From a bacterium (GTDB taxonomy: Bacteria; Electryoneota; Electryoneia; Electryoneales; Electryoneaceae), in contig CAXXKJ010000002.1 of assembly GCA_963675295.2 (NCBI GenBank), forward strand, positions 3,392,001 to 3,456,000: a DNA stretch of 64,000 bases, written 5' to 3'. The translations under genes and the position numbers were made by a program. Positions 10,032 through 24,498 of the stretch are shown piece by piece (position 1 is the first letter of the stretch; every line of letters begins with the position of its first letter). Below the pieces are notes generated by a model. It was not told where the DNA came from. It searched no databases and saw nothing but the letters and a program-made list of their open reading frames with translations.

Positions 10032-11657
10032 TCAGCGGCGTTCGGTCAACCATAGCACCAGCCGGATGAACGTGAACGATCGCCGCTCCGGATGACGCAC
10101 CGCAGTCATCAGCAGCCCCACCACGAGCCCGGGCACAGTCAACCCGCGGCGAATGATGTAGCGGAGCCCGAACGTGGGTCCAGCGTTGTCTGATCCCGAA
10201 CCGGACTTCACACTCTCAGCTCTCCCCTGCACCAGCAAGCGCTGCAACGTTTTCCGCGTAAATAGCAGGTAATCCCGCCCGGCATACAATCGTAGCAACG
10301 CCGTCCGGTGGATCACTGGACCGACTTCGCTGACCCAGCGCGTGAAGGCCTCCGGGACGGGCTGCGATGTCACGATTTCGTCAAAATCCAGCGGCCCGAA
10401 CACAGCCTCGGTGGCCGTGCGTGTCAATCCAGCAGCCCGCTGCAAACCGGCCCGGGCAACTGTTTCGTTGAACGCATGTGGATCGAGTTCCGCGCCCCAG
10501 GTTTTCCACGCCAACCGCGCGTCCAGCATCACCTTCAACGGCTGCAGCAGGTGTTCCACGCCACCGTGCAGCAGCAGGTGGATCAATTGATCCTCCGGCG
10601 CAAGCACGTTAAGCAGCAGTCCATCAACCGTGACCTCCACGGCACGATCCCACACTCCTGCCACATCCCAGTCGAAATCCGCGTAGTACGGCAGCAGGCC
10701 GACATGCAGATCGACCTTGATCCGCCGCTGCGGATCGTACAGCCAGATCTCCTTGCTCTCCGCGATGCCGCCGCCCCCGCCCTGCCGCTGGAATCCGAGT
10801 GACTGGAAAATCACGAGCGCAGCGTTGACGTCCGGTTCACGCACGAGTAAATCCAGATCGGTCATCGGACGTGTCGCCGGATCCGGGTACAGGCTGTGCG
10901 TGAAATACAACCCCTTGAGCACAATCAGGTCGATATCACGTTCACGGAAGGCCGAACTGATTCGCCGTTGCGCGGCAAACAGCCGCTGGTATTGCACCCA
11001 TGCCTGGCGGTAGTAACGTTGCAAGCGTTCCCGGCTCTCAATCGGCACTGTGTCAAGCAGGCTCGCGCGATTCAGCTGCCAGCACAGGTACGGCGCCAGT
11101 TCATGCTGATCTGCGAGCGTAACAATCGCCGGCCATAACGCCTCGTCCGCCGGCAGTGCCCCGTTGAACAACGCCCCTTTTTCGCCGGCAGCCAGCATCT
11201 GGTACAGGGACCCTAGCGCAACGCGGATCGTCCCGCTGCTTCGCGGTCCCTGATAGCGTCCGGTCAGCCTCAGCGCCAGCAGGTGGACACCCCGGATCGT
11301 ATACCACAACTGCCCGCGAACCCATCCGGCCGTCCCACCTCGCACCGTCTTCCACACCCCTCGCCGCTGTTGGGCCACTACCCTGCCGATGAAACGGTCG
11401 GGTGTCACCGGCCGCACATCAACTGTCACCAGATCATCACCCCGAGTCAGCAGCGCCGTGTCCTCGCGACGGATAACCCGGTGAACGATCTGCCGTTCTT
11501 CACCGCTGGCACGGAACACGATTACATCTCCGGCACGCACGGCATCCATCGGACAGGCACGCACTCGCAGCCGTTCCCCGTCACGGAACAGCGAGCGCAT
11601 GCTCCCGCCATGGTAGATAATCTCGTGCAGTTCGCCGGATGATGAGGGTTGGTTCAT
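10032..11657 (-). CDS. Fusion of an S24/S26-type peptidase domain and an NTP_transf_5-type nucleotidyltransferase
   Basis: N-terminal GGSMRSLF...GDVIVF...IVHRVI...TRGD (S26-like); C-terminal IVLKG...YPDPATRPMTDLDLLV, VDLH and DQLIHLLLH (NTP_transf_5-like). Confidence 0.88.
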   Translation of the reverse strand: MNQPSSSGELHEIIYHGGSMRSLFRDGERLRVRACPMDAVRAGDVIVFRASGEERQIVHRVIRREDTALLTRGDDLVTVDVRPVTPDRFIGRVVAQQRRGVWKTVRGGTAGWVRGQLWYTIRGVHLLALRLTGRYQGPRSSGTIRVALGSLYQMLAAGEKGALFNGALPADEALWPAIVTLADQHELAPYLCWQLNRASLLDTVPIESRERLQRYYRQAWVQYQRLFAAQRRISSAFRERDIDLIVLKGLYFTHSLYPDPATRPMTDLDLLVREPDVNAALVIFQSLGFQRQGGGGGIAESKEIWLYDPQRRIKVDLHVGLLPYYADFDWDVAGVWDRAVEVTVDGLLLNVLAPEDQLIHLLLHGGVEHLLQPLKVMLDARLAWKTWGAELDPHAFNETVARAGLQRAAGLTRTATEAVFGPLDFDEIVTSQPVPEAFTRWVSEVGPVIHRTALLRLYAGRDYLLFTRKTLQRLLVQGRAESVKSGSGSDNAGPTFGLRYIIRRGLTVPGLVVGLLMTAVRHPERRSFTFIRLVLWLTERR

Positions 11658-11739
11658 GATGAAATGTCGTCAGCCGCGTGAATGATCGGATGCCTCTCCC
11701 CCCTCGCAAAGGTAAAGCCGTACGCCGTACAAGAGAAAA

Positions 11740-11769
11740 CCCGCTCCCGGTCAAGTTGCCGGAAGCGGG
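11740..11769 (-). terminator. Intrinsic terminator after the T9SS cargo gene
   Basis: cccgctcccgg/ccggaagcggg stem followed by a T-run on the minus strand. Confidence 0.6.
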
Positions 11770-11793
11770 CGAGAAGAGTGCAGTCGCGCGCCC

Positions 11794-13761
11794 CTATTTC
11801 ACCAACGTCAATTTGCGACTCATCTCCTGATTCTGCCAATTCACCCGCAGCAGGTACGTCCCGGACGCGACATCGTCCGCATTCCACACCACCTGGTGCG
11901 TCCCCGCATGTAGCGGTCCCCGTTGCAGCTGCGCCACTTCCCGGCCAAGCACGTCGAACACACAAATCGCCGTGTTTCCGGCCTGTGGAATCGCAACTTC
12001 CACCGACACGCTCGAGTTGAACGGGTTCGGATAGGCACTCACAATCCGGAACTCATCCGGAATCGGAATCGTCTCATCCTCCACGCTCAACAGCGCGTCG
12101 GATTCTGGTTCACGAACGACGCGGAACGCGAACCAGTAACTTTGCGACGCTTCGTCGCCGGAGGTGAAGACAAACTCATCCATCTCATCGAGGAAACCGA
12201 TCACCTGCGGTTGGTTGCCTTCGAGCATGATCAGCTTCACCCGGATGCGTGGCGGCAGATTACTCAGGTCCGGCCAGTAGAGCCGGATATCCGTATTTGG
12301 CAAGTTCTTCACCCGAACTTCCGCCACCCAGTATTCCCAGATCGAATCCCAGTCGCGCAGATCCCACGCGTACCGTCCCGGGACATCCCAGTTGTCGTGC
12401 GGGAACGACATGTTGACATACTGGGTGATCGGCGGCGTGAACTCGAACGCGTCCCACGGGTCGTAATCGTCCTCGCTGCCTTCCCGGACACCGATCTTGT
12501 TGTAGTGGTCCACGTGCTCACCGTCAACCGTCTCGATCGGGATGTCGACAAACCAGTAATAGCGTGGATCTTCCTCGAGATCATCCGGGCTCGGACCATG
12601 CGACCCACCATCGTAGCTGAATTCAAGCTCAGCGTCGCCGGTGGTCGTTTTGATCACCCAGAATCCCTGCCACGGGAAGAGGTAGGACGTCGCCAGTGTG
12701 GCATCCAGCACCTCGTAGGATGACCCGTTGAACGTGTACACGTTGGAGTTGATCCCGTCCTGTCCCCAGCCTGAGGGGTTGCCGCCCACGGTAATGGTTG
12801 ACGTGTTCAACTGGTACGTTCCGTAGAATGGATTCGCCAGCATCGTCATCCCGTTGATATCATTCTGATACCCCGTGATGGTCTGGCTCACGTTCACCTC
12901 CGGCGCGCCCGTTGTCTGCGCCGAGACAACATCGAGCCACGGGTCTTCGACTCCGGGCTCGACATTCTGTACAAACCAGTACCCCAGACCGGGTTCAATG
13001 TCCGGTGGTTCTATGTTCGGATCGTTATCCCCCAATCCGAACCGGTCATAGTTCAGGGTTGCCGGGTTCCACCGGCTCATCACCCATGTTCCGGGCGAAC
13101 TGAGCCCGCCAAGATCGTCTGAGAACAGCGAGTCCGCGACTCGATTTTCGGCCAGGGTTACCAGTGATGGTACCCCGAGCAGATACCAGCGGTTGTTCGT
13201 TGACACGTCGCAGGTGTACGCCGTGACGTTGAACTCCGCCAGGTCGACGTAAACGTTTTGCGTCCGCCCGGCGACAACGTTGTATTCCTGCTCCACGATG
13301 AACCGGACCGCGTCCGCCGTGTCTGGAGCCTGCCCCTCAATGGTGTGTAACGACCAGAACGCTCCCGCCGAGGAAACGTTGTTTTCGACCGGATCGCCTG
13401 CCGGGTTCTCACCCGTGTAGAACTGCAGGTACAGCTTCAGAGTCGACGAATTTCCGTTTCGCAGGTACACCGAGAATTGCACCGAATCCCGTGGCCACAC
13501 CACCAGGTCCTGATATAATAGGTTCGGCCCTTCCAGCGAGTCGAGCACCATCTTCACCGAGTACGTGCCGCTCAATACCGTGCTCAATTCGCGGACAATC
13601 CCGCCCTCGGGTTCAACCTCGATCCAATCCGACACATCGTCAGAGTTCCATGTTTCGAAATCGTTGTTCTGTAGGCTTGCCGGGTTCTGGGCATGGACCA
13701 TCACTGCGGGGAGCCACACCAGCAGCAACAGTCCGATCAGCTTCAGCATCTGTGTTCGCAT
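11794..13761 (-). CDS. Secreted protein with one CBM-like N-terminal module and a T9SS type-A C-terminal sorting domain
   Basis: Signal peptide; LQNNDFETW module; C-terminal AYPNPFNS...FDVLGREV...ASGTYLL...KLTLVK; GGAGG RBS before ATG 13761. Confidence 0.85.
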   Translation of the reverse strand: MRTQMLKLIGLLLLVWLPAVMVHAQNPASLQNNDFETWNSDDVSDWIEVEPEGGIVRELSTVLSGTYSVKMVLDSLEGPNLLYQDLVVWPRDSVQFSVYLRNGNSSTLKLYLQFYTGENPAGDPVENNVSSAGAFWSLHTIEGQAPDTADAVRFIVEQEYNVVAGRTQNVYVDLAEFNVTAYTCDVSTNNRWYLLGVPSLVTLAENRVADSLFSDDLGGLSSPGTWVMSRWNPATLNYDRFGLGDNDPNIEPPDIEPGLGYWFVQNVEPGVEDPWLDVVSAQTTGAPEVNVSQTITGYQNDINGMTMLANPFYGTYQLNTSTITVGGNPSGWGQDGINSNVYTFNGSSYEVLDATLATSYLFPWQGFWVIKTTTGDAELEFSYDGGSHGPSPDDLEEDPRYYWFVDIPIETVDGEHVDHYNKIGVREGSEDDYDPWDAFEFTPPITQYVNMSFPHDNWDVPGRYAWDLRDWDSIWEYWVAEVRVKNLPNTDIRLYWPDLSNLPPRIRVKLIMLEGNQPQVIGFLDEMDEFVFTSGDEASQSYWFAFRVVREPESDALLSVEDETIPIPDEFRIVSAYPNPFNSSVSVEVAIPQAGNTAICVFDVLGREVAQLQRGPLHAGTHQVVWNADDVASGTYLLRVNWQNQEMSRKLTLVK

Positions 13762-14053
13762 TGTACAATCCTCCACTCTCCTTCAGCGACCGCGTTCGCC
13801 GGATAACGAAAAACCGAATTATTCGTAAACTACAATTCATATTATGTATTAAGCTAAGTATACAAATTATTTTTGGTTTCCGTCTGTGATCTGCATCACA
13901 TCATGAGTCCATTTCCAGAAAAATGCGCGTCAACGGAGCACCAATACCGCAAAACTGAGTTTTCTGGCGATTGCTTGTTTTTCCGGAAGTTGTAGCTATC
14001 AATGGTCGGGCAATTCAGCGTGAATTTGTGCGAGGATCCGGTGGAGAGAGAGA

Positions 14054-14085
14054 AAGCGCTCACACCCGGATGGATGTGAGCGCTT
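14054..14085 (-). terminator. Intrinsic terminator after the 805-aa T9SS cargo gene
   Basis: aagcgctcaca-N10-tgtgagcgctt, a perfect 11-bp stem, then pyrimidine-rich on the minus strand. Confidence 0.65.
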
Positions 14086-14103
14086 GAGGTCGTTGGATCA
14101 GGA

Positions 14104-16521
14104 TTACTGCAGCAGCGTGATCTTGCGATGCGCAACCTTGCCGCCAGCCTTCAACTGCAGGAAGTAGGTACCGGACGCGTAGTCCTGCGCGTTCCAGGTG
14201 AAGGTGTGCAGCCCGGCGGTCAGCTGACCGTCGTGGATGCGGGCAACTTCGCGACCGAGGACATCGTAGACCTTCAGCGTCGTCTCGCCAGCTTCCGGGA
14301 TACCCATCTTGACCGAAATCTGTGCGTTGAACGGGTTCGGATAGGCGTTGCTGATCCCGAACTCAACCGGGAGCGCGGCGCCGGACTCATCCGCGACATC
14401 CGTCGAACGGCTCACATCGTACGCGCGCACGTAGAAGTGCTCAACTTCCGACTGGCTGTCGCCAACGTTAAACACGTACTCTCCACCCATCTCGTGCAGG
14501 CGGCCGACCGGCTGAATACCGTTCGGGGTGATGTGCATTAGTTCGAACTCAACATTCTGCGGACCACCCTGAAGCGTCGGCCAGTGAAGACGCAGGGTGC
14601 TGTTCGGCAGACGGTTGGCCTTGACATCGAAGAACCAGACTTCTTCGTCGAAATCGCGATCACGGTAGTCCCACGCGAAGCGGGTACCTTCTCGCCAGTC
14701 ATCATGCACAAACGCGAGGCTGACGTAACGGGAATCCGGCGGAGTCAGCTCGAAGGCATCGTAGCCATCGTAACCGTCGCGGGAACGATCCCGGACACCA
14801 AACTCGTTGTAGTTATCCTGGTATTCGCCATCAACGGTTTCGACGCGAAGGTTGATGCCCCAACCGGTGTCGGTGAACTCATCGACTTCTTCAACATCAT
14901 CGATAACCGGACCGTGTTCATCAGGGTTGTACACGAATTCAATCTGGCCATCGCTTGCGGTCGTCTTGACCACCCAGAAGCCATCCCACGGGTCCAGCAC
15001 GGCTGAAGTCGCCAACTGAATCAGGTACTGACGAGTCTGACCGTTGTACTTGTAGATGTTTGCGTTGATGCCGTTCTGGCCCCAGCCGGAGGCGAAACCA
15101 CCGACCGTCAGGTTCGCGGTAGCGAGTTCGTAGTCACCGTAGAACGGGTTCGCCAGCATGGTTTCGCCGTTGGCAACGATCGTCTGCGTAACGTTCGAAC
15201 TCGGTGCACCAGAAGTCTGCGAAGAGGTGATATCCAACCGCGGGTCCGGAGTGCCCGGTTCAACTGCCTGGACGAACCAGTAGCCGAGGCCCGGCTCGAT
15301 GTCCGGCGGTTCCGTGCCCGGATCACCGTCGCCGTTGCCGAAGCGTTCGTACTGCTGCGTGCTGTTGTTCCAGCGGCTCATCACCCACGTGCTTGCGGTG
15401 CTGTTTCCGCCAAGGTCATCCGCGAACAGGGCATCGGCGTTACGATCAGCCTGGTCGTCGATAATAGTCGGAACACCGATCAGATACCAGACATTCTCGT
15501 CGGATACATCTTCGGTGTACGTGTCGATCCAGTAGTCCACATCATCCACGTAGACCGTCCTCAATTCATCGGGGTCTGTCGTGTTGATCTGCTGAAGTTC
15601 GTAACGCACCCATGCGGTTGAAGAAGGCGTTTCCAAGGTAGCCGACACCTGGGTAAAGCTCGTTGTGTTGGCCGAGTTGGCGTAGCCTTGCTGAATGAAG
15701 TTGTTGTTCGCGTCGTAGGCTTTGAGGTACAGACGCGACAGCTGGCCGGAGGTGATATCCTCAGCGAAGTACGCGCTGCCACCGACGGTATCGCCCGGGC
15801 GCACGTACAGGTACTGGATCAACCGGGGTCGCGAAAGCGCCGCCGAGCTCAAGGCTGCCGAAGCTGAACCGGAGTTCACAATGACATTTTCTTCGTCAAC
15901 CGCTGCATCGCTGACCAGTAGTGCTTCCCAGTAATCGGGTGCTCCACCGGTCCAGTCCTCGAAGCTCTCGTTCACCACCGAAACGTACGTCGGCTGCGTG
16001 ATTACGATATCAGCGTAATCAACGTAGCACACCTGGGGTAACGGCTGCGAATCGTTCTTGAAATGCAGGATTTCGTACTTGATCTGCGTCGTCGAAGCCG
16101 GCGTGACAAAGTCCAGTACCAGGGCCTGCCACGACGTCGTGTTGATCGACTGCGTGAATTCCTGGTACAGAAGGTTGTTGCTCTCATCGTACACCTTTAC
16201 GTAGACGCGAACGAACGAATCGTCGTTGTCGTACACGAAGATGGAAGCTTCAACCTGTTCGTTCGGATCAACGCTGAAGTACTGCACGAGTCGCGGACGA
16301 GTCGAACCGACGTTGTTGATCTTCACCGAAGATCCGCCGCTGTACGCGAACGAATTTTCCTGAATCTCGTTGTTCCCGGATTCAACAACCGTCCAGTCAT
16401 CCGGGTTGTCATCTGTCCAGTTTTCAAAATCTGCGTTTAACAGGTTTTGCCCCGAGGCAGGGAAAACCAGCAACCCAAGAAGCAAAACCAGAAGCGTAGA
16501 AAACAGAACCGAAGACCTCAT
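14104..16521 (-). CDS. Secreted protein with two CBM-like modules and a T9SS type-A sorting domain; paralog of 11794-13761
   Basis: Signal peptide; LLNADFENW and VVNESFEDW modules; shared core TWVMSRWN...EPPDIEPGLGYWFVQ; C-terminal AYPNPFN...YDVLGREV...ASGTYF...KITLLQ. Confidence 0.87.
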   Translation of the reverse strand: MRSSVLFSTLLVLLLGLLVFPASGQNLLNADFENWTDDNPDDWTVVESGNNEIQENSFAYSGGSSVKINNVGSTRPRLVQYFSVDPNEQVEASIFVYDNDDSFVRVYVKVYDESNNLLYQEFTQSINTTSWQALVLDFVTPASTTQIKYEILHFKNDSQPLPQVCYVDYADIVITQPTYVSVVNESFEDWTGGAPDYWEALLVSDAAVDEENVIVNSGSASAALSSAALSRPRLIQYLYVRPGDTVGGSAYFAEDITSGQLSRLYLKAYDANNNFIQQGYANSANTTSFTQVSATLETPSSTAWVRYELQQINTTDPDELRTVYVDDVDYWIDTYTEDVSDENVWYLIGVPTIIDDQADRNADALFADDLGGNSTASTWVMSRWNNSTQQYERFGNGDGDPGTEPPDIEPGLGYWFVQAVEPGTPDPRLDITSSQTSGAPSSNVTQTIVANGETMLANPFYGDYELATANLTVGGFASGWGQNGINANIYKYNGQTRQYLIQLATSAVLDPWDGFWVVKTTASDGQIEFVYNPDEHGPVIDDVEEVDEFTDTGWGINLRVETVDGEYQDNYNEFGVRDRSRDGYDGYDAFELTPPDSRYVSLAFVHDDWREGTRFAWDYRDRDFDEEVWFFDVKANRLPNSTLRLHWPTLQGGPQNVEFELMHITPNGIQPVGRLHEMGGEYVFNVGDSQSEVEHFYVRAYDVSRSTDVADESGAALPVEFGISNAYPNPFNAQISVKMGIPEAGETTLKVYDVLGREVARIHDGQLTAGLHTFTWNAQDYASGTYFLQLKAGGKVAHRKITLLQ

Positions 16522-17082
16522 GAGAAAGTCTCCTCGAAAGTGTTAGCACTACATTCCGTGACCGAACCCCGCCGCCCCGACAAATCTCAGGAAGTGAGTG
16601 TCCCCGGAGAAGAGACTCAGGGTGCTACAAGGCTACAATACTAATGATAGTTTCAGCGCATCAATCTAACGTCTCAGGAACCGAAAAATCTACGTACTGA
16701 GATATTAGAATGCTATGCGGGAGGTCACACGGCGGAGCACGTCTTGGAGTACCCTTGCCCCGCTGAGGCCCGCAACAGCAAACGCCGTCTTGCGAAGTAT
16801 GGTGACTTCTGCCTATCTATGACAAGTCTATCGGACGGTACTCGGAGTTCCTTGAAGTTTGCAGCTTCTGGCTCGAGCCTCTCAAGTAATCTCCGGTTTT
16901 TGCGGATATGTGATTTGTGTCATTGCAAACCCCTTGTCCGGGCAGCGACTTTATCGGTCCGCGAGCGAAATACCAAACATTCAGCGCGCCCGTAGTGCTT
17001 TTTCGGGCTCTGAGTGGAGAGTCCTCTCGGGTTCGGGGGGGTGCATTGGGCTCCTTTTCGCCGCATATTCGGTGCTGATGTG

Positions 17083-17091
17083 TGTTATAAT
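17083..17091 (+). promoter_or_regulatory. Extended -10 promoter element (TGnTATAAT) for the precursor-RRE-kinase operon
   Basis: TGTTATAAT about 60 nt upstream of the GGAGG-preceded GTG at 17152. Confidence 0.55.
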
Positions 17092-17151
17092 TCTTAGCAC
17101 ACTGATTTTCGAGATAACGACATCGCTTTGTTTGACTTTTTGGAGGCACTC

Positions 17152-17319
17152 GTGGAGAAGAGCGTGGGATATGAAAAGCCCTTGCTTGTCGAGCTGTCCT
17201 TGTTGCTGGATACCGCGCACGGTTTCTCTGAACCTGACCCGCCGGGTGGCACGGATGCAGGGAATAACGACAAGGAACACGAAGACCAGCAGGAGTCCGA
17301 TTCTTTCGATTGGTTGTGA
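17152..17319 (+). CDS. Putative RiPP precursor peptide (55 aa, ScmA/lasso-like leader)
   Basis: GGAGG RBS then GTG. MEKSVGYEKPLLVELSLLLDTAHGFSEPDPPGGTDAGNNDKEHEDQQESDSFDWL carries a YxxPxL RRE-binding motif and lies directly upstream of a PqqD-family gene. Confidence 0.7.
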   Translation: MEKSVGYEKPLLVELSLLLDTAHGFSEPDPPGGTDAGNNDKEHEDQQESDSFDWL

Positions 17320-17334
17320 TTGGGCGTTGTTCCC

Positions 17335-17622
17335 ATGTCCTTGAGTGCACCCGTCTATGTGACGGACCCGGCCGTGGTTTTCCGAGAAGACATGAAGGAC
17401 GGCGGGGTGTTGTACCACCCGGAAACTGACCGGGCCTACAGTCTCAATCGTCTCGGAGCTCGTATCTGGGCAATGCTGAGTGAAGGGGAAACCCAAGCCC
17501 GCATTGTTGACCGGTTACGAGCTTCTTTCGCTCCCGGTGAGGTCCCCTCTCTCGACGAGGACGTCGATGAGTTTCTCGCTCACCTCGTCAGAAACAACCT
17601 CGCAAGCGTCGAGGATGCCTGA
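17335..17622 (+). CDS. PqqD-family RiPP recognition element (ScmD-like)
   Basis: PAVVFRED...VLYHPETDRAYSLNRLGARIWAML...DVDEFLAHLVRNNL, the classic PqqD pattern. Confidence 0.88.
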   Translation: MSLSAPVYVTDPAVVFREDMKDGGVLYHPETDRAYSLNRLGARIWAMLSEGETQARIVDRLRASFAPGEVPSLDEDVDEFLAHLVRNNLASVEDA

Positions 17623-18502
17623 CTACTCCCTTCACCTGGCCGACGGATCGCGTTGGCGCTTCTCAAGTACTCCCGACCGTGCCGGCTGGCTCAAACAGTT
17701 CGCGTACACGCTGACTCTCCCATCCGAGGTCTCCGCACCAGCATCCACGACCACTCCTTCACACATCCGCGTTTGTTCGCCGATCGAGACTGAACAGCAG
17801 ATCGGATCTCTCTGGGGAGACACCCGGCCCGCGAACTTCGACCTCGGACCGTTGCAGGTTTACACGCGCCGTGGCTCCACGGAGATGCTGTTTGTCACGC
17901 CCGATAACAGCGACCGGCACCAATGGCTGATGAGCATGTGGTATAGCCTTTACCCGTTGTACCCGGCATTGCTGAAGCGCGGCATCCTCCCGGTTCATGC
18001 CGGGCTGGCAGAGTGGAACGGCCACGGCGTGCTCTTTGCCGCCCCGGGAGGCACGGGTAAATCGACCACGCTGCGTCGATTGCCGGAGAGTTGGCGAACT
18101 GTCTGCGATGACGAAACCTGGCTGGTACCGGCCGACACCGGCCTGCGGACGCATCCCCTGCCGACGTGGAGCGACCTGGTCTTGCGCGGCAAACAGGATC
18201 GTTGGCCATCAGCGACCTCCCTCCCGCTGGGTCACGTGGTCTTCCTGCGTCAGGCGGAACAAGTTTCCGTACGGCCTCTCGACCACGCCGAAACCGCTGC
18301 ACTGCTCAACCAGGCAGTGGAACAGATTCTCCGGCGTGCGTGGACGGTGCTGGTTCCGCCGGACCTTGCGGCGGTCAAGGTGCGCATGTTCGAGCTGGCG
18401 GAAGAACGCACCCGCACTCTCAGCGGCATCCTGCTCGACCTGAACCTGCATGATCCGTTCGCGGACCAACTGCAGGAGATCATCCTCGCGATGGATCGGT
18501 AA
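17615..18502 (+). CDS. HPr-kinase-related P-loop protein (SynChlorMet ScmC-like)
   Basis: YSLHLADG N-terminus; LPVHAGLAEWNGHGVLFAAPGGTGKST Walker A followed by CDD; HPLPTWSD; overlaps the PqqD gene. Confidence 0.82.
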   Translation: MPDYSLHLADGSRWRFSSTPDRAGWLKQFAYTLTLPSEVSAPASTTTPSHIRVCSPIETEQQIGSLWGDTRPANFDLGPLQVYTRRGSTEMLFVTPDNSDRHQWLMSMWYSLYPLYPALLKRGILPVHAGLAEWNGHGVLFAAPGGTGKSTTLRRLPESWRTVCDDETWLVPADTGLRTHPLPTWSDLVLRGKQDRWPSATSLPLGHVVFLRQAEQVSVRPLDHAETAALLNQAVEQILRRAWTVLVPPDLAAVKVRMFELAEERTRTLSGILLDLNLHDPFADQLQEIILAMDR

Positions 18503-18611
18503 TCCCTCCAGCCCGTCGGCATGTTGGCCGGGGTCGCGTGAGGTCGATTCGCGCCGTACCTTTGCCTGAGATAGATTCACGGCAGCTTTGCAGCCCAGTC
18601 TCCGGAGAGTC

Positions 18612-20423
18612 ATGACGGCCCATCAGCAACAGGGACGTGGTTCCTCGTTGAAACCCCTTCTGCGCATGTTGCGCATGATGGGCCGCTACGCGCCCCGCCA
18701 GAGCGCGTTGTATCTCGGCTTTTCCGTCATCAGGGGCGTGCTGCCGTTAATCCAACTGGTGCTCTTCAAGTGGATTGTCGACGCGATCGTGGTCGCGGTG
18801 GACGCGCCCGACCCGACCACTGAGCTGCCGAACGTGATGATGTATGTCATCGCCGCCGGGTTCACCTACTGGCTGCTGATCTCATCGACCACGGCGGACA
18901 ACTGGCTGCGGCAGCATCTCGTTCAGCATTTCACCGATCACCTGTTCGACCGGATCCATCGCAAGTCGATCACCGTCGGCCTCGCATACTACGAGAACAG
19001 CGAGTTCCGTGACAGCCTGCACCTCGCGCAACGGGAAGCGCTGACCCGTCCCGCTCGATTGATTCAGGAAACCAGCAGCCTCTTCCAGAACCTGATCTCG
19101 ATCACTGGCATCGCCGGTTTGTTGATCACCGTCCACTGGCTGCTCGGTCCGGTCTTACTCCTGGCGGCATTGCCCGACGTATTCCTCCGATTCTTCTTTT
19201 CGCGGCAGTGGTACAAGTGGGAACGCAGCCGCACGCACGACGAACGCCGCGCCCGCTATTCGAGCTGGGTGTTGACCAGCACGTATTACGCCAAGGAGCT
19301 TCTGCTCTACGGGCTTGGAGACCTGTTCTCCGACCGCTTCCGTGAACAACGGGAGCAGTTGCGCGAGGAGAAGCTGGAGATTGTCGAACGGCAGTCGGCG
19401 TTCGAGTTGATCGCGAAGACGGTCTCCGCGCTGCTCATCTTCGGATTGTACGCCTTCGTCGCGTTCAAGGCCGCAATGGGCGCGATCACACTCGGCGCGC
19501 TGGTGCTGGTAATCCAGGGCCTGGCACGTGGCGGGTCGATGATCCAGCGTGTGCTCACCGGCATCGCGGCGATGTATCAGAACAACCTTTTCCTCACAAA
19601 CCTGTTCGAGTTCCTCGACCGTAAGCCGCAGCTTACGGCGCCCCCCTCACCAGTCGCGGTTCCATCGGACCTGACCCGGAGCCTCGCCGTCGAGAATCTG
19701 TCGTTCCAGTATCCGAACCGGCAGGACTGGGCGCTGCGGGACGTGTCCTTCGAACTCCACCCCAACGAAGTGCTGGCGGTAATCGGCACCAACGGGTCCG
19801 GCAAGACGACGCTGGTCAAGCTGCTGACCCGGCTTTACGACCCCACCGAAGGCCGGATCACGTTGGATGGGACCGACCTGCGCGACTTCGATCCGGACCG
19901 GCTGCGCACATTGTACAGCGTCATCTTCCAGGACTTCGCCAAATTCCACGACAGCGTGCGCGAAAACATTGCTCTAGGCGATCCGTCCGCAGAAGTAAGC
20001 GAGGAGGCGATTCTCGCCGCTGCCCGGGACGCCGGTGTCGACGAATACATCGACCGTCTCCCCAACGGTTACGACACGTTGCTCGGGACCTGGTTCGCGA
20101 ACAGCGTCGACCTCAGCGAAGGTCAGTGGCAACGGCTCGCGCTGGCTCGTGCGTTGGTTCGTCCCTCACGGATCGTTATTCTCGACGAACCTTCCAGCTC
20201 GCTCGATGTCCAGAGCGAACACGCGCTCGTCTCCCGACTGAAGCAGGTGCTCAACGACCGAGCGGCGATCCTGATCAGCCACCGTCTCTCCACCATCCAA
20301 ACCGCCGACCGGGTACTGATCCTCGAGGACGGGCGGGTCAAGGGATTCGGCACCCCCGCCGATTTGCTGACCACGGACAGTGACCTGCTGACCATTCTCG
20401 ATTCCAATCGCAACCGTATCTAG
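18612..20423 (+). CDS. ABC exporter, fused permease and ATPase (peptide-exporter-like)
   Basis: TM domain plus GTNGSGKT, LSEGQWQR, ILDEPSS and ISHRLST. Confidence 0.93.
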   Translation: MTAHQQQGRGSSLKPLLRMLRMMGRYAPRQSALYLGFSVIRGVLPLIQLVLFKWIVDAIVVAVDAPDPTTELPNVMMYVIAAGFTYWLLISSTTADNWLRQHLVQHFTDHLFDRIHRKSITVGLAYYENSEFRDSLHLAQREALTRPARLIQETSSLFQNLISITGIAGLLITVHWLLGPVLLLAALPDVFLRFFFSRQWYKWERSRTHDERRARYSSWVLTSTYYAKELLLYGLGDLFSDRFREQREQLREEKLEIVERQSAFELIAKTVSALLIFGLYAFVAFKAAMGAITLGALVLVIQGLARGGSMIQRVLTGIAAMYQNNLFLTNLFEFLDRKPQLTAPPSPVAVPSDLTRSLAVENLSFQYPNRQDWALRDVSFELHPNEVLAVIGTNGSGKTTLVKLLTRLYDPTEGRITLDGTDLRDFDPDRLRTLYSVIFQDFAKFHDSVRENIALGDPSAEVSEEAILAAARDAGVDEYIDRLPNGYDTLLGTWFANSVDLSEGQWQRLALARALVRPSRIVILDEPSSSLDVQSEHALVSRLKQVLNDRAAILISHRLSTIQTADRVLILEDGRVKGFGTPADLLTTDSDLLTILDSNRNRI

Positions 20424-20518: not shown

Positions 20519-21814
20519 CTACAACTCGTCTGTCATCACTTCGATGTAGACATCCTTGTGCTGGTCGGCGAGCCAGTTGGTGTACTCGATTTCCTGCTTC
20601 TCGCGCAATGCCATTTGGCTGATGCGATCCCAATCGCGTTGCAACTCGAGCTCACGGGCATCGTCGTGCTCGGTCACCGTCACCAGGTGCACACCAACTC
20701 GCGACAGAAACGGCTCGCTGATTTCGCCAACGTCGAGATCACGCGCGACCTGCTGGAACTGGTCGGGAATCGAGTTCAGGTCAAACCAACCAAGGTCACC
20801 GCCTAGCTTGGCGGTTTCATCGTCCGCCGAAGCCTCTTTCGCCACATCGGCAAAACTCTCGCCGTCCATGATCCGGTCACGCAGCAGGCGGGCTTTCTCG
20901 ACCGCACGTTCTTCGTCGGCGTCGGTGGCCTGCAGCATCACGAGAATGTGGTTGGTGTTGATTTTCTCACCACGTCGCCAGTTGAGGCGGATGATGTGAT
21001 AGCCGAAACGGGTGCGGATCGGTTCGCTGATCTCGCCTTCTTCGAGGTTGTACGCGACCGCTTCGAAGTCCGGCACGAGGTCGCCACGCTGAGTCGTGCC
21101 GAGCAATCCGCCTTTCGGCGCGCTCGCACGGTCATCCGAGTATTCCATCGCCAGCGAATCGAAATTCGCACCGTTCGCGATCAGGTTGAACAGGCTGTCC
21201 GCCTTGGCCAACGCCTGGTCGCGGGCTTCTTCCGCCGGTTCGACTTCGATCAGGATGTGCGCAAGCCGGACACGTTCCGGCATGGTTGGCAAATCCTCCT
21301 CGACCCGTGCATAGAAATCCTCGACCTCTTTTTTAGTCAGGGTGGTCTTACGGGTTTGCGACGCGCGCACGCGCTCGATCAGCAGGCTGTTGCGCACCTG
21401 GTCACGGAAATCTCGGCGAATCTGGCGAATCGGCTTACCGTAATACTCCTCCAGCGCTTCCTCGCCGCCGACCTCACGGGTAACCTGGTTGATGCGATCA
21501 TCGAGGGTCATGTCGACCTGGCGGTCTTCGACGACGATGTTCGTGTCTTCCTCTGCAATTGCCAGCAGGATTTTCTGGTTGATCAGCTCTTCCAGCACGG
21601 ACGCCTTCAACTGGGCAATCGCGGTTTCGGTGCGATACTGATCGCGGTTGCGCAGCACGATGTCCTGAACATACTGCAGCACTTCGGATTCGAGAATGAT
21701 TTCGTCATCGACGACGGCGATGACGCGATCGACGACCTGGGCGTCCTGTGCGAAGGCCTGGGTTACGAACAGGGCCAGCAACAGGGCCAGAATCGCGATA
21801 CGAGGGGTGCTCAC
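20519..21814 (-). CDS. surA: SurA-like chaperone / parvulin PPIase (two rotamase domains)
   Basis: VVDRVIAVVDDEIILESEV, HILI, KGGLLG, GEISEPIRTRFGYHII, GGDLGWF; GTG 21814 with a GGAGG RBS. Confidence 0.85.
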   Translation of the reverse strand: MSTPRIAILALLLALFVTQAFAQDAQVVDRVIAVVDDEIILESEVLQYVQDIVLRNRDQYRTETAIAQLKASVLEELINQKILLAIAEEDTNIVVEDRQVDMTLDDRINQVTREVGGEEALEEYYGKPIRQIRRDFRDQVRNSLLIERVRASQTRKTTLTKKEVEDFYARVEEDLPTMPERVRLAHILIEVEPAEEARDQALAKADSLFNLIANGANFDSLAMEYSDDRASAPKGGLLGTTQRGDLVPDFEAVAYNLEEGEISEPIRTRFGYHIIRLNWRRGEKINTNHILVMLQATDADEERAVEKARLLRDRIMDGESFADVAKEASADDETAKLGGDLGWFDLNSIPDQFQQVARDLDVGEISEPFLSRVGVHLVTVTEHDDARELELQRDWDRISQMALREKQEIEYTNWLADQHKDVYIEVMTDEL

Positions 21815-21818
21815 TTGC

Positions 21819-22739
21819 TTACTCCTCCGTGACCGGGGACGGGGTGTCAACATCCACACTGTCCACGGTTTCTTCGTGACTGGGTACAGATTCAGGTTCG
21901 GCGAATCCATCGCCGAGCCGGATGCGGACGAGTCCGCTTTGACGGGCTTCCCGGCGCAGGGCTTCGACGTAGTCAAGTTTGCTCCGGCTCCGCAGTTCCG
22001 CCATCATCCGGTCGCGTACGACATCCGCGACCTCTTCGAATGGACGAGTGCGTCCCTCCTGGAAACGATCCAGCAGTTTGACGATCATCCACTCCCCATG
22101 ATACTCGACAGGCAGGCTGGAGTGTCCAGAGCGGAGAGGCTGGATCGCAGTCGAGATTTCCCGGGGCAACCGGCTGACGCTGATGTTGGTCAACGTATCA
22201 ATTCGGCTGACACCAATTTCCTCGACCATTTGCGCCGCTGTTGCGGATTGATCGAACGCTTCGCGCAACCGCCAGGCGCTGTTCTTCGAATCAACGTACG
22301 CGACGACGAGATTCACTTCCTTCGCGACTCGGGTATACTCACCGGTATGATTCTTCCAGTACTCGACAACATCCGACGATGACGGCGTATCGACAACCGT
22401 ATTCACTTCGATCAACGAGTTGATCAGTAAGTCGTCTTCGAGCGCAGCGATCCGGCGTTTGAAATCCGGATCACGCTGCAGCTTGTTCTGCCGGGCTTCG
22501 TACACCAGCAGCCGAGTGTCGACCCAGTTGTTGACATAGCGGGCGATGTCCTGCTCGCGCGGGTACTCGATCCCCATTTGCCGGAGCACGTCGAGTACGT
22601 CCTCCTCGGTGATCCATTCGTCACCGACGACGGCGAGTGCATCCGCCGGGGGTTCGGATTTGAACAGGCCGCACCCGGCAGTCAGCAACAAGAGAAAGAC
22701 GGCCAGCGCAGCGCCGGCCGTCTTGATTGCCACTTGCAT
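21819..22739 (-). CDS. PPIase-like lipoprotein (rotamase)
   Basis: Lipobox TAG-C; ALAVVGDEWIT and RPFEEVADVVR; middle gene of the tandem PPIase operon. Confidence 0.75.
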   Translation of the reverse strand: MQVAIKTAGAALAVFLLLLTAGCGLFKSEPPADALAVVGDEWITEEDVLDVLRQMGIEYPREQDIARYVNNWVDTRLLVYEARQNKLQRDPDFKRRIAALEDDLLINSLIEVNTVVDTPSSSDVVEYWKNHTGEYTRVAKEVNLVVAYVDSKNSAWRLREAFDQSATAAQMVEEIGVSRIDTLTNISVSRLPREISTAIQPLRSGHSSLPVEYHGEWMIVKLLDRFQEGRTRPFEEVADVVRDRMMAELRSRSKLDYVEALRREARQSGLVRIRLGDGFAEPESVPSHEETVDSVDVDTPSPVTEE

Positions 22740-22740
22740 C

Positions 22741-24498
22741 TTAACCGGCGGACGAATCATTGCCCCCTTCGCCAGCCCAGGTGGTGTTCGGGAAGGTGAT
22801 GTCAATCGCGCGTTTGTTCAGCTGCCAGTCGATGGCGCTCTTGATGCTGTCCATGTACGTGGTCTTGCGCGTTTCACGGCTCCACGCACGCCAGTCGACA
22901 TTCACCTTGTCCTTGACGTTCTCGAATTCATCCGGCTTCGGCTCTTCCTTCGAGATCACCTTGAACACCGACCACTTACCCTGCACACGCAGCGGCCCGA
23001 CGATCTCGCCGATTTCCGCTTCGGCGGCATTGCGGCCAATGGCACCGTACTGAGCCTTCCGGATCGGGCCGAAGATACCTTCCTTCTCCTTCACGCCCGG
23101 ACGAGTGGTGTATTCAATCGCCAGCTCCTTCAGCGACTTGTCACCGCGTTCGGCCATCGCCTTGACGCTGTCCGCCATCTCGCGATCTTCGAGGAAGACT
23201 TCGATCAATGTGTACTGCGCGTCAAGCATGTAGTCTTCCATGTGTTGGTCGAAGTACTTCTGCAGGTCTTCGTCCGTCGGTTCCGGAATCTCATTGATAT
23301 CCTGGTTCACGATCTGACGAATGCGGATGTCTGCCGCCATCTTGGCCTGTTCCAGCACTTCCGGCAGGCTGAGGAAACCGCGTTTCTTGGCGTCATCCGG
23401 CAACAGCACCTTTTCGGTGATGTAGTTCTCAACGATCGCCTTGACCATCTCCGCATCTTCGAACTTGCGATTTGCCATGTGACGCTGCACATACGGCTTC
23501 AGGTCGGCGGCGGTAAACGAACCGTCATCGTATGTCACCAGGTCCCATTTCAGCTGTTTTTCAGTGAGGAAGCTGAACGGATCGGCGGCCGGCTGACGCG
23601 ATTCAATAATGTCGTAGACCTTGTTGATGTTACTCATCTGGAATTCAACATTGCGGGAAGTTTCCAGGTCCTTGACATACTGCCGCGCCATGTCTACCAG
23701 CTCCTGGCCGTGTTCACGCATCGCCAGCTGCTTGATCCGTTCCTTGTCCTCTTCATAGCTCGGACGGTCCGGAATCGGACGGACTTCGTGCGTGAAGATC
23801 AGGTGCCAACCGAATGGCGTGTACACCGGATCGGACATGTGACCCGGCTCTGTTGCGAATGCAACGTTCTCGAACGACGGAACCATCTCACCACGGCGGA
23901 ACCAGCCCAGCTCACCGTTCTGCGAGTTGGTGTCTTCGCTGTTCTCGAGGGCGGCGTTGGAGAAGACCGTGCTGTCAACGGTCTCGTTGTTGTCGAGGAT
24001 CTCCTTGCGGATCTCTACGATCGCGTCATGCGCCTGGACCGAATCCGTGTCCTGGTCGATGCGGATCAGGATGTGGGATGCGTTGACTTCGAACCCGTCA
24101 CGCTCGTAGTAGGCTTTGAGGCTGTCTTCCGGAATCAGCGAGTCGACGATGGTCCGTGTGTACAGCTCGCCGATCGCGGCCATGTTCCGCGCCTCTTCGT
24201 ACGAGGACAACACTTCCGGACGGTTGGCGTAACCCTTCGCGCGGCCGTCCGCGGCCTTCAACTCACCTTCGAGAACCTCGGTGACATAATTATCCATCGC
24301 TTCACGAGTCTGCGTCGCGAGCATCATCTCACCGCCGAACCTGCGCAGCGCGAGATTTTTAAACTCATCCGTGGTCATTTCGTCGCCGTCGACAACCATC
24401 ACCACATCGTTGCCGAGTTTTTCACCGCAGCCCCAGATCAGGGTCAGCGCGGCCAGAGCGAGAAACAGCGCCATCAACTTGGTCTTCATCGGTCTCAC
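22741..24498 (-). CDS. Parvulin-type PPIase lipoprotein (two rotamase domains)
   Basis: Lipobox IWG-C; VNASHILI, GELGWF..GEMVPSFENVAF, SDPVYTPFGWHLI. Confidence 0.88.
   Translation of the reverse strand: MRPMKTKLMALFLALAALTLIWGCGEKLGNDVVMVVDGDEMTTDEFKNLALRRFGGEMMLATQTREAMDNYVTEVLEGELKAADGRAKGYANRPEVLSSYEEARNMAAIGELYTRTIVDSLIPEDSLKAYYERDGFEVNASHILIRIDQDTDSVQAHDAIVEIRKEILDNNETVDSTVFSNAALENSEDTNSQNGELGWFRRGEMVPSFENVAFATEPGHMSDPVYTPFGWHLIFTHEVRPIPDRPSYEEDKERIKQLAMREHGQELVDMARQYVKDLETSRNVEFQMSNINKVYDIIESRQPAADPFSFLTEKQLKWDLVTYDDGSFTAADLKPYVQRHMANRKFEDAEMVKAIVENYITEKVLLPDDAKKRGFLSLPEVLEQAKMAADIRIRQIVNQDINEIPEPTDEDLQKYFDQHMEDYMLDAQYTLIEVFLEDREMADSVKAMAERGDKSLKELAIEYTTRPGVKEKEGIFGPIRKAQYGAIGRNAAEAEIGEIVGPLRVQGKWSVFKVISKEEPKPDEFENVKDKVNVDWRAWSRETRKTTYMDSIKSAIDWQLNKRAIDITFPNTTWAGEGGNDSSAG

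Follow-up and report, generated by a model that had tools for sequence, protein, structure and literature searches.

What does a SynChlorMet-like peptide modification cassette do when it carries no radical S-adenosylmethionine (rSAM) enzyme? This question is raised by a locus of seven genes (positions 10032 to 20423) in a 64,000-nucleotide stretch of DNA, hereafter called the window, which spans positions 3,392,001 to 3,456,000 of contig CAXXKJ010000002.1 (assembly GCA_963675295.2). The host is a diderm bacterium of Ca. Electryoneota, a phylum of the FCB group, and its 4.81 Mb genome is assembled in two contigs and is 92.8% complete. The cassette encodes a 55-residue precursor of a putative RiPP (a peptide made on the ribosome and modified after translation), a discrete PqqD-type RiPP recognition element (RRE), the P-loop protein ScmC, an MsbA-like ATP-binding cassette (ABC) exporter, a fusion of a leader peptidase to a nucleotidyltransferase (NTase), and two paralogous cargo proteins of the type IX secretion system (T9SS). 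All seven, as named in a preliminary description of the locus, are present with intact, open frames.

That description proposed a new minimal RiPP class, wherein the RRE delivers the peptide to the kinase, the NTase extends the phosphate, leader removal falls to the fused peptidase and a linear product leaves through the ABC transporter. These steps remain the best reading of the locus; they have precedent in part in Bacillota, and all three enzymes have kept their active-site residues. The class itself is not an unknown one, however, and the claim of novelty is largely pre-empted by the linear polyphosphorylated peptides (LPPs), as described in the main text of a 2026 report (Popov et al., Nat Commun 2026, PMC13381572). 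The cassette resembles those of LPPs and is assembled from SynChlorMet components. By analogy, its product is most likely a small, exported, phosphate-decorated linear peptide, and we think it fairly probable that the cassette constitutes a functional LPP-like RiPP pathway, descended from SynChlorMet and equipped with a secreted protein as its dedicated partner. New here are the host phylum, a kinase of the ScmC type, the view that SynChlorMet cassettes consist of an LPP-like core with added rSAM enzymes, the peptidase-NTase fusion and, above all, the specific pairing of the precursor gene with one T9SS cargo family, whose conserved part is termed T9core. The chemistry and the role of T9core are what we infer from these parts.

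Enzymes of the cassette and their likeness to LPP pathways

The LPP loci of Bacillota (lppA-K-B-S-D-N) encode a precursor, an HprK-like kinase, a discrete RRE, a SipW-like signal peptidase I (SpI) leader peptidase, an MsbA-like pump and an NTP transferase (PMC13381572). LppK polyphosphorylates Ser3 of the core and accepted neither Thr nor Tyr, and LppS (S29/H68/D93) cuts after T-1 in a reaction that requires the RRE (PMC13381572). The main text of this study calls LPPs restricted to Bacillota and leaves radical SAM unmentioned. The window shares with these loci a discrete RRE and a precursor motif of the [Y/W]xxPx[L/V/I] type, an archaeal-type SpI-like peptidase with Ser-His-Asp residues, an MsbA-like exporter and an NTP transferase (likened to LppN by description), as well as the lack of a macrolactam synthetase and of a B2 protein. 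It differs in its host, a diderm of Ca. Electryoneota rather than a member of the Bacillota; in its kinase, a member of the ScmC family (TIGR04249) with only a remote likeness to the HprK-like kinases of the lasso type; and in its RRE, which is nearer TbiB1. Moreover, the leader continues after YxxP as LxEIxLLDESAxG and is followed by a core with an invariant E-P..P, the peptidase and the NTase are fused, and the locus is linked to T9SS cargo, whereas LPPs are linked to capsule loci.

Two further systems share parts with the window. SynChlorMet cassettes (NCBIfam TIGR04248-TIGR04251) resemble it in a ScmC that scores above its cut-off, a PqqD partner, a YEKPxL leader and genes for the same peptidase, NTase and ABC exporter, whereas the window lacks both rSAM/SPASM enzymes, has a core without Cys and a ScmD score below cut-off, and includes the T9core partner. 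Lasso peptide clusters of the paeninodin/pseudomycoidin type, for which locus L143 served as our example, likewise combine an RRE, an HprK-like kinase, a PF14907-type NTase and an ABC pump, and the addition of phosphate and then hexose is known there from the published account of pseudomycoidin (PMC6993621). Unlike those clusters, the window encodes neither a macrolactam synthetase nor a B2 Cys protease. By analogy, a Ser peptidase would remove the leader, and phosphate is probably accepted close to the start of the core rather than by a C-terminal Ser.

The discrete PqqD-family RRE (17335 to 17622, + strand; 95 aa) is encoded directly after the precursor and matches PF05402 with 52.2 bits. 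Among proteins of solved structure, it comes closest to the lasso B1 protein TbiB1 (E 4.7e-8). Judging from its family, this protein would bind the 55-residue precursor via YEKPLL. The profile searches that the preliminary description had suggested gave matches for ScmC, PF05402 and PF14907, and the ScmD model (TIGR04248) reached 44.1 bits, under its cut-off of 100.

The ATG of the gene for ScmC (17615 to 18502, + strand; 295 aa) overlaps the stop codon of the RRE gene by 8 nt, a layout by which the two genes appear to be translationally coupled. ScmC is present in a single copy in the genome (TIGR04249, 179.8 bits, E 7e-53, cut-off 125) and is a presumed peptide kinase with a P-loop and a PEPCK/HprK-like fold; a search of plasmids by tblastn gave no match. 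Its Walker A and DD (D165/D166) motifs are invariant, and the pseudomycoidin kinase PsmK, as described in PMC6993621, needs the DD motif D158/D159. The ScmC profile aligns to the HprK-like kinase of a paeninodin-type lasso cluster from Paenibacillus cellulosilyticus (hhalign 93.6%, E 2e-7). The full length of an AlphaFold2 (AF2) model (pLDDT 91) can be matched to PEPCK (Z 13.5 and 12.4), and its residues 123 to 295 to HprK/P (Z 9.7-9.9; root-mean-square deviation 3.3-3.8 Å over 123-128 residues). By analogy with LppK, PadeK and PsmK, ScmC would (poly)phosphorylate a hydroxyl residue just after the leader, for which the best candidate is Ser26 in G-F-S-E-P.

The peptidase-NTase fusion (10032 to 11657, - strand; 541 aa) begins with a signal-peptidase-I-like domain of the archaeal type (aa 9-97, 11367 to 11633) in which Ser19, His59, Asp74 and Asp80 are present. 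The best model for this part is TIGR02228 (archaeal-type signal peptidase I), at 44.7 bits and thus below the cut-off of 51.85, and it also matches SEC11C (E 2.2e-5). Residues G17, S19, M20, H59, R60, G73, D74 and D80 are identical in all 67 cassette peptidases compared. No membrane helix is predicted for the fusion protein, and for this reason it is not a housekeeping signal peptidase; the role of a cytoplasmic leader peptidase fits better. The C-terminal NTP_transf_5 domain (aa 172-421, 10395 to 11144) matches PF14907 with 161.4 bits and is homologous to the NTase of the lasso cluster L143 (168 bits against an NT profile built here). It retains Gly249 and Asp267-x-Asp269, which are identical in 51 of 51 sequences, and PsmN is reported to need its DxD residues D134/D136 for the addition of a +162 Da hexose to the phosphate (PMC6993621). 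The same fusion occurs in the related loci L005, L006 and L007, and an independent fusion is found in one Omnitrophota locus (L032), the sole instance outside the window's genus. Two independent fusions argue that peptidase and NTase act on one substrate complex.

The fusion protein would thus act twice on the same RRE-bound substrate. Its NTP_transf_5 half may decorate the phosphate, for which the hexose transfer by PsmN is the precedent, and its Ser-His-Asp half would remove the leader in the cytoplasm. Cleavage is expected either after the nearly invariant Ala22, which lies at the LppA cutting distance from YxxP, or after the invariant Gly24, as an A-x-G rule would have it. In a separate observation, an NTase-domain match on plasmid NZ_CP034185.1 of Deinococcus psychrotolerans lies under a gene annotated as a lasso peptide biosynthesis B2 protein, which may be a B2-NTase fusion or a mis-annotation. 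A literature search on PF14907/NTP_transf_5 returned phosphonate work among the matches listed.

The exporter (18588 to 20423, + strand; start codon position approximate) is a half-transporter with fused transmembrane and nucleotide-binding domains. It matches PF00664 and PF00005, its best NCBIfam match is MsbA (264 bits, below cut-off), and it is 73-92% identical in L005-L007. This pump would move an acidic, Pro-rich linear product of approximately 31-33 residues across the inner membrane, after which the product would work with the neighboring T9SS cargo proteins that bear T9core.

Several observations weigh against this pathway. The RRE scores below the ScmD cut-off, and it is nearer TbiB1 than 9x90_B (E 0.037) and 9x8z_B (E 0.64), recent entries of the PqqD family that may be proteins of the LPP study. 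The candidate acceptor is not universal, in that two of 21 precursors have only Tyr at this place. The related cassettes L105 and L107 are without a detectable peptidase, and both of their genomes hold a second, canonical cassette that has one. LppN was inactive even in the LPP study, as far as its main text reports (PMC13381572), and LppK, LppS and LppB were set against the cassette proteins by published description, not by sequence. Our literature search found no paper on a SynChlorMet cassette and no characterized ScmC-family member; the terms TIGR04248-51, ScmC and ScmE returned only unrelated SCMC/SCME acronyms among the matches listed. In a diderm, the pump reaches the periplasm only. 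Finally, at the level of sequence ScmC resembles HprK only marginally (E 0.015) and in the P-loop half alone, and another ATP-dependent chemistry is possible for ScmC because the best structural matches of the whole model are PEPCK.

This last point is the basis of the alternative that survives best, although we consider it unlikely: the cassette does modify the peptide, yet ScmC does something other than phosphorylate Ser as LppK does, and adenylylation, phosphorylation of another residue or an HprK/P-like phosphorylase activity would yield a product unlike LPPs. The PEPCK-like fold, the restriction of the HprK/P match to the C-terminal half, and the two precursors that lack the candidate Ser are all in keeping with this account, as is the usual place of ScmC beside two rSAM enzymes that act on Cys-rich cores, a setting without LPP precedent. 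Against it stand the alignment of the ScmC profile to a lasso-cluster HprK-like kinase, the invariance of Walker A and DD, motifs on which PsmK depends (as reported in PMC6993621), and the companion genes for RRE, SpI peptidase, PF14907 NTase and MsbA-like pump, which make up the set found in LPP clusters.

The precursor family and its pairing with T9core

The precursor gene (17152 to 17319, + strand) starts with GTG and encodes a peptide without Cys that has a YxxPxL leader, an A22-x-G24 element and an acidic, Pro-rich core from about FSEPDPP. Its frame and start, as first described, were borne out by an alignment of the window with the corresponding DNA of three relatives (L005, L006 and L007; ScmC 81%, 54% and 55% identical). 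In this alignment a Shine-Dalgarno sequence, GGAGG (17142 to 17146), and the GTG at 17152 are conserved, and substitutions in the open reading frame (ORF) concentrate at third codon positions. In L005, a stop codon lies upstream of the GTG, and the ratio of nonsynonymous to synonymous substitution rates (dN/dS) of the ORF against this locus is 0.17. An alternative, Cys-rich frame from an ATG at 17171 was rejected because conservation and third-position changes track the frame that starts at 17152.

The precursor family has 21 members that conform to the pattern [Y/F]xxPxLxEIxLLDESAxG, followed by one to six residues, E-P-x-x-P and a variable acidic or Gly/Pro-rich tail. In window numbering, P10, L18, G24, E27 and P28 are invariant, and L12, A22 and P31 are nearly so. 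YEKPLL forms residues 7 to 12, and the motif is kept, as Y or F, in all 21 members. A Ser or Thr is present between the invariant Gly24 and Glu27-Pro28 in 19 of the 21, and 20 are without Cys (the remaining one has a single Cys). The distance from Tyr7 to Ser26 is 19 residues, as compared with 18 in the LppA motif, and Ala22 sits at the LppA -1 position. Counted from the Tyr of YxxP, a hydroxyl residue is found 19-20 positions further on, and the Ser that is phosphorylated in LppA 19 positions on. In some members the peptide ends directly behind EP..P.

The peptide gene is covered by contigs from three RNA-Seq runs, which belong to two studies. A contig of 182 nt from a wetland run is identical to positions 17118 to 17299, and two contigs of 645 and 649 nt, ~95% identical to the window, span 16804/16837 to 17452/17478 in two freshwater-sediment runs of the other study. 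In these contigs of a relative, an insertion behind 17250 is offset by a deletion at 17254, such that the frame is kept. RNA-library contigs show presence and carry no information on level, strand or transcript ends; positions 17515 to 18900 are without such contigs, and that stretch was not used as evidence.

The divergent intergenic region (16522 to 17151) had been thought to hold a promoter for the peptide gene. A scan for the sigma-70 consensus found no site there, and the region instead carries a conserved noncoding block at ~17033 to 17100, the strongest of several that are kept in four genomes of the genus where other intergenic sequence no longer aligns. This block of ~70 nt lies 50 to 120 nt upstream of the peptide start and may be within a long 5′ leader, since the longer RNA-library contigs begin ~320 to 350 nt 5′ of the start codon. 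An Rfam scan of 16400 to 17400 gave no match at E <= 1, and folding of 17020 to 17165 revealed no unusual folding energy (z -0.29). The synonymous divergence of the peptide and PqqD genes (17152 to 17622) from L005 is ~0.21, three to four times lower than that of the other cassette genes (0.58-0.89), which could reflect constraint at the level of RNA or a recent exchange of this segment.

On the opposite strand lie the two cargo genes. T9b (14104 to 16521, -) comprises a signal peptide, two CBM_4_9-like domains, T9core (14395 to 15510) and a C-terminal sorting domain (CTD, as in TIGR04183/PF18962; 14119 to 14343). T9a (11794 to 13761, -) comprises a signal peptide, a CBM-like N-terminal part, T9core (12082 to 13209) and a CTD (11809 to 12033). 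The T9a start, an ATG at 13761, was set by alignment with L005; the open frame spans 11794 to 13776. The two proteins are 44% identical over 636 aa, and both match Por_Secre_tail (T9b also CBM_4_9) and the sorting domain model TIGR04183 (39.4 bits for T9a and 44.1 for T9b, cut-off 23). With N-terminal hydrophobic segments typical of Sec signal peptides and a genome that encodes SprA (830 bits), they are predicted to be type A cargo of the T9SS. The genome holds ~431 places with such a CTD, about one per 11 kb, and its T9SS secretome is thus unusually large. With CTD genes at such density, proximity to a CTD alone is uninformative in these genomes.

T9core itself is the informative part. It corresponds to T9a residues 185 to 560 and is modeled as a pair of beta-sandwich domains (AF2, pLDDT 88.2). 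Foldseek gave no match to this model at E <= 1e-3; the best VIA Z was 5.0, for generic sandwiches; in Pfam, member 1 was without a family at E <= 1 and stray matches occurred in three of 15 members; and the ESM Atlas returned unnamed clusters only. The module is not rare, given that 169 representatives were recovered with its profile from 1.84 billion proteins at E <= 1e-30. In the genome of the window, however, it is confined to T9a and T9b. We examined 89 distinct ScmC loci (80 from genome contigs and nine further loci of the phylum) and classed them by the presence of ScmE/F-like genes within 8 kb: T9core adjoins 12 of the 40 rSAM-less loci and none of the 49 rSAM loci.

The pairing also extends to places without enzymes. 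The phylum has 35 T9core places that score at least 340 bits, about half of them at a cassette. Among 20 other T9core loci checked, six have a full-signature precursor within ~100 nt (seven genes in total, from a count that left out motif-only small ORFs lacking the LLDES..EP part) and no enzyme genes nearby. Furthermore, all three genomes whose cassette has no adjacent precursor (G036, G013 and G010) carry a T9core-precursor pair on another contig. A complex prediction for the T9core module with the precursor family scored 0.11, which counts neither for nor against binding. The cargo proteins, which had been treated as mere neighbors, are not bystanders of the cassette; T9core is its most specifically linked and least explained part. 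Literature searches found no report of a RiPP paired with T9SS cargo (the combination of 'type IX secretion' and RRE gave genome surveys), and the main text of two Electryoneota genome papers does not mention RiPP, lasso, T9SS or PqqD.

This pairing could be read the other way round, wherein the whole system serves the T9core proteins, and the peptide assists them as a chaperone between molecules, as a pro-peptide supplied in trans or as a regulator, tuned by the enzymes, with no free natural product. The persistence of T9core-precursor pairs without adjacent enzymes speaks for such an arrangement, as does the restriction of T9core to the cassette in this genome; in addition, several precursors stop soon after EP..P, so long tails are dispensable. 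We hold this reading to be improbable. The same set of RRE, ScmC, peptidase, NTase and pump occurs without T9core in Thermodesulfobacteriota, Chlorobiota and metagenome-assembled genomes (MAGs) of methanogens, about half of the strong T9core genes of the phylum are without a detected adjacent precursor, and T9core is exported by Sec whereas the enzymes are cytoplasmic.

Cassettes with and without rSAM enzymes

As the preliminary description had noted, no rSAM, lasso cyclase or transglutaminase-like gene is present in the window, and a search of the 92.8%-complete genome extends this result. ScmE (TIGR04250, cut-off 400) had no match at E <= 1e-3, and the best matches to ScmF (TIGR04251, cut-off 400) reached 37-41 bits, from a generic SPASM protein 830 kb away. 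The same models gave 602.5 bits (ScmE) and 577.4 bits (ScmF) at a Chlorobiaceae locus, L025, that served as the positive control. The genome has 13 generic rSAM genes, none of them in the window. Its lone Asn_synthase is of the asnB type (TIGR01536, 436.8 bits against a cut-off of 267; lasso cyclase model, 213 against 525), and PF13471 (B2) has no match in the genome. A core without Cys in a genome without ScmE and ScmF indicates that no rSAM chemistry is involved.

One adjacent pair of 388-aa rSAM genes (C2:2577618-2580714) was weighed as a candidate for action in trans: one encodes an anaerobic sulfatase maturase (TIGR03942, 425 bits, cut-off 349) and the other a generic SPASM/twitch protein (ScmF, 40.8 bits), and no PqqD or ScmC gene is nearby. 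At this locus outside the window (L144, C2:2574000-2588000), the two genes flank a 272-aa ORF, and the neighbors, a sigma-54 activator and FGE/GldK-like proteins, are unrelated to the cassette.

A survey of ScmC neighborhoods lacking rSAM genes, which the preliminary description had proposed, establishes the cassette as a recurrent type. In the 89 loci, 46 of the 49 with ScmE/F-like genes have two of them. These 49 also include PqqD (45), a stand-alone signal-peptidase-like gene of ~210 aa (44), NTP_transf_5 (27) and an ABC exporter (22). In their small ORFs, an M-x-YEKPxLxxL leader precedes a core with many Cys, Gly, Ser and Thr residues, and at least two Cys are present in 50 of the 63 that bear the motif; this definition of a canonical precursor (YEKPxL leader with a Cys/Gly/Ser/Thr-rich core) was derived here from the loci and not taken from a curated source. 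Thus, peptide and enzyme set change together, with mostly Cys-rich cores at rSAM loci and almost only Cys-free ones among the Electryoneota precursors. The peptidase and the NTase, which could have been seen as additions to a stripped SynChlorMet cassette, are both ordinary members of canonical cassettes. Since canonical cassettes mostly have the same peptidase and about half of them the NTase and the pump, they look like an LPP-like core to which two rSAM enzymes and Cys-rich cores have been added.

Within the phylum, ScmC is found in 17 of 79 genomes, and 16 of these, spread over several families, have the rSAM-less cassette. As a rule, the genes follow one another as T9core cargo, precursor, PqqD, ScmC, peptidase, ABC and NTase. 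In the window's genus, where the gene order is syntenic in four genomes, the cargo genes and the fusion gene are inverted relative to this order. Canonical cassettes occur in three genomes of the phylum, as an extra or the sole type (L045, L050 and L063). Two of these are the canonical, peptidase-bearing rSAM cassettes of the genomes that hold L105 (L063) and L107 (L050), and in L105 (10907-11392) and L107 (10906-11391) a 162-aa hydrophobic ORF without a peptidase-profile match even at E 10 fills the peptidase slot.

In a quick tree of 90 ScmC rows, 11 rSAM-less rows form one clade (SH-aLRT, the Shimodaira-Hasegawa-like approximate likelihood ratio test, 95), and the window's genus together with L117/L118 lies on long, unresolved branches. 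In a subset tree of 41 rows, which by our choice leaves out 49 of the 90, all 17 rSAM-less rows are on one side of a branch (support 94.8, unstarred). The two trees together are mixed evidence; they are compatible with a single origin of the rSAM-less type, in either direction, by loss or by gain of rSAM genes.

Other arrangements were seen outside the phylum. An Acidobacteriota MAG (L068, 9434-11797) carries an rSAM-less set of precursor, ScmC, peptidase and PqqD, wherein the precursor has a Y-x-K-P-E-L leader and a Cys-free core of Ser/Gly/His repeats. Three delta-proteobacterial MAGs with long contigs (L057, L061 and L066) have ScmC without PqqD, rSAM, peptidase or NTase genes within 8 kb; a Cys-rich YMKPEI precursor is beside ScmC in L057 and L066, and none was detected in L061. 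The enzymes for these three may be encoded elsewhere in their genomes.

The rSAM-less cassette is a conserved type and not a remnant. All seven genes of the window are under purifying selection (dN/dS 0.05-0.21 against L005), and the check for pseudogenes that the preliminary description had called for revealed no decay. Although ScmE and ScmF are missing and ScmD and the peptidase score below curated cut-offs, the notion of a functionless, decaying SynChlorMet remnant left after loss of rSAM genes is effectively refuted by open frames, these dN/dS values, intact catalytic residues, an arrangement kept in 16 genomes of several families, and RNA-library contigs over the peptide gene. That rSAM or lasso enzymes elsewhere in the genome act on the peptide in trans is just as improbable: 13 rSAM genes, including the adjacent 388-aa pair, are available and some 7% of the genome may be unassembled, but that pair is a sulfatase maturase and a generic SPASM/twitch protein far from any PqqD or ScmC gene, the peptide has no Cys, the sole Asn synthase is of the asnB type, and there is no B2.

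The surroundings of the cassette are unrelated to it, with a GH130 phosphorylase on one side and SurA-like peptidyl-prolyl isomerases on the other. Three consecutive genes of this SurA/PpiC type (20519 to 24498, - strand) lie directly downstream of a cassette with a Pro-rich product, which is probably a coincidence. A terminator-like hairpin (11739 to 11770, - strand; 12 pairs, nine of them G-C) that separates the stop codon of T9a from the fusion gene's start is a consensus match only, as such sites are as many in this region as in shuffled sequence.

A possible secreted partner of the peptide

How the product of the proposed LPP-like pathway and T9core might cooperate can be sketched as a two-part extracellular device, an idea that we put forward tentatively and think unlikely. 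The pump would deliver the phosphorylated and possibly glycosylated peptide to the periplasm, where the double beta-sandwich of T9core would take it up, and the peptide would ride the type IX system to the surface. If this is true, a secreted protein would have the RiPP as its own ligand or prosthetic part, the cargo would give a diderm RiPP producer a way to export its product across the outer membrane, and the dispersed T9core-precursor pairs would be alternative 'cartridges' for one enzyme cassette.

The LPP-like reading of the cassette has consequences of its own. It would carry LPP logic beyond the Bacillota, to which the main text of the LPP study (PMC13381572) confines it, and into an uncultured diderm phylum. 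It would also tie LPPs to the uncharacterized SynChlorMet cassette and give ScmC a function that can be tested. The fusion of peptidase and NTase lends weight to the view that the NTase, as yet without an explanation, works on the RRE-bound peptide. Lastly, the locus presents a precursor family that is paired with one family of T9SS cargo, even where the enzymes sit elsewhere in the genome.

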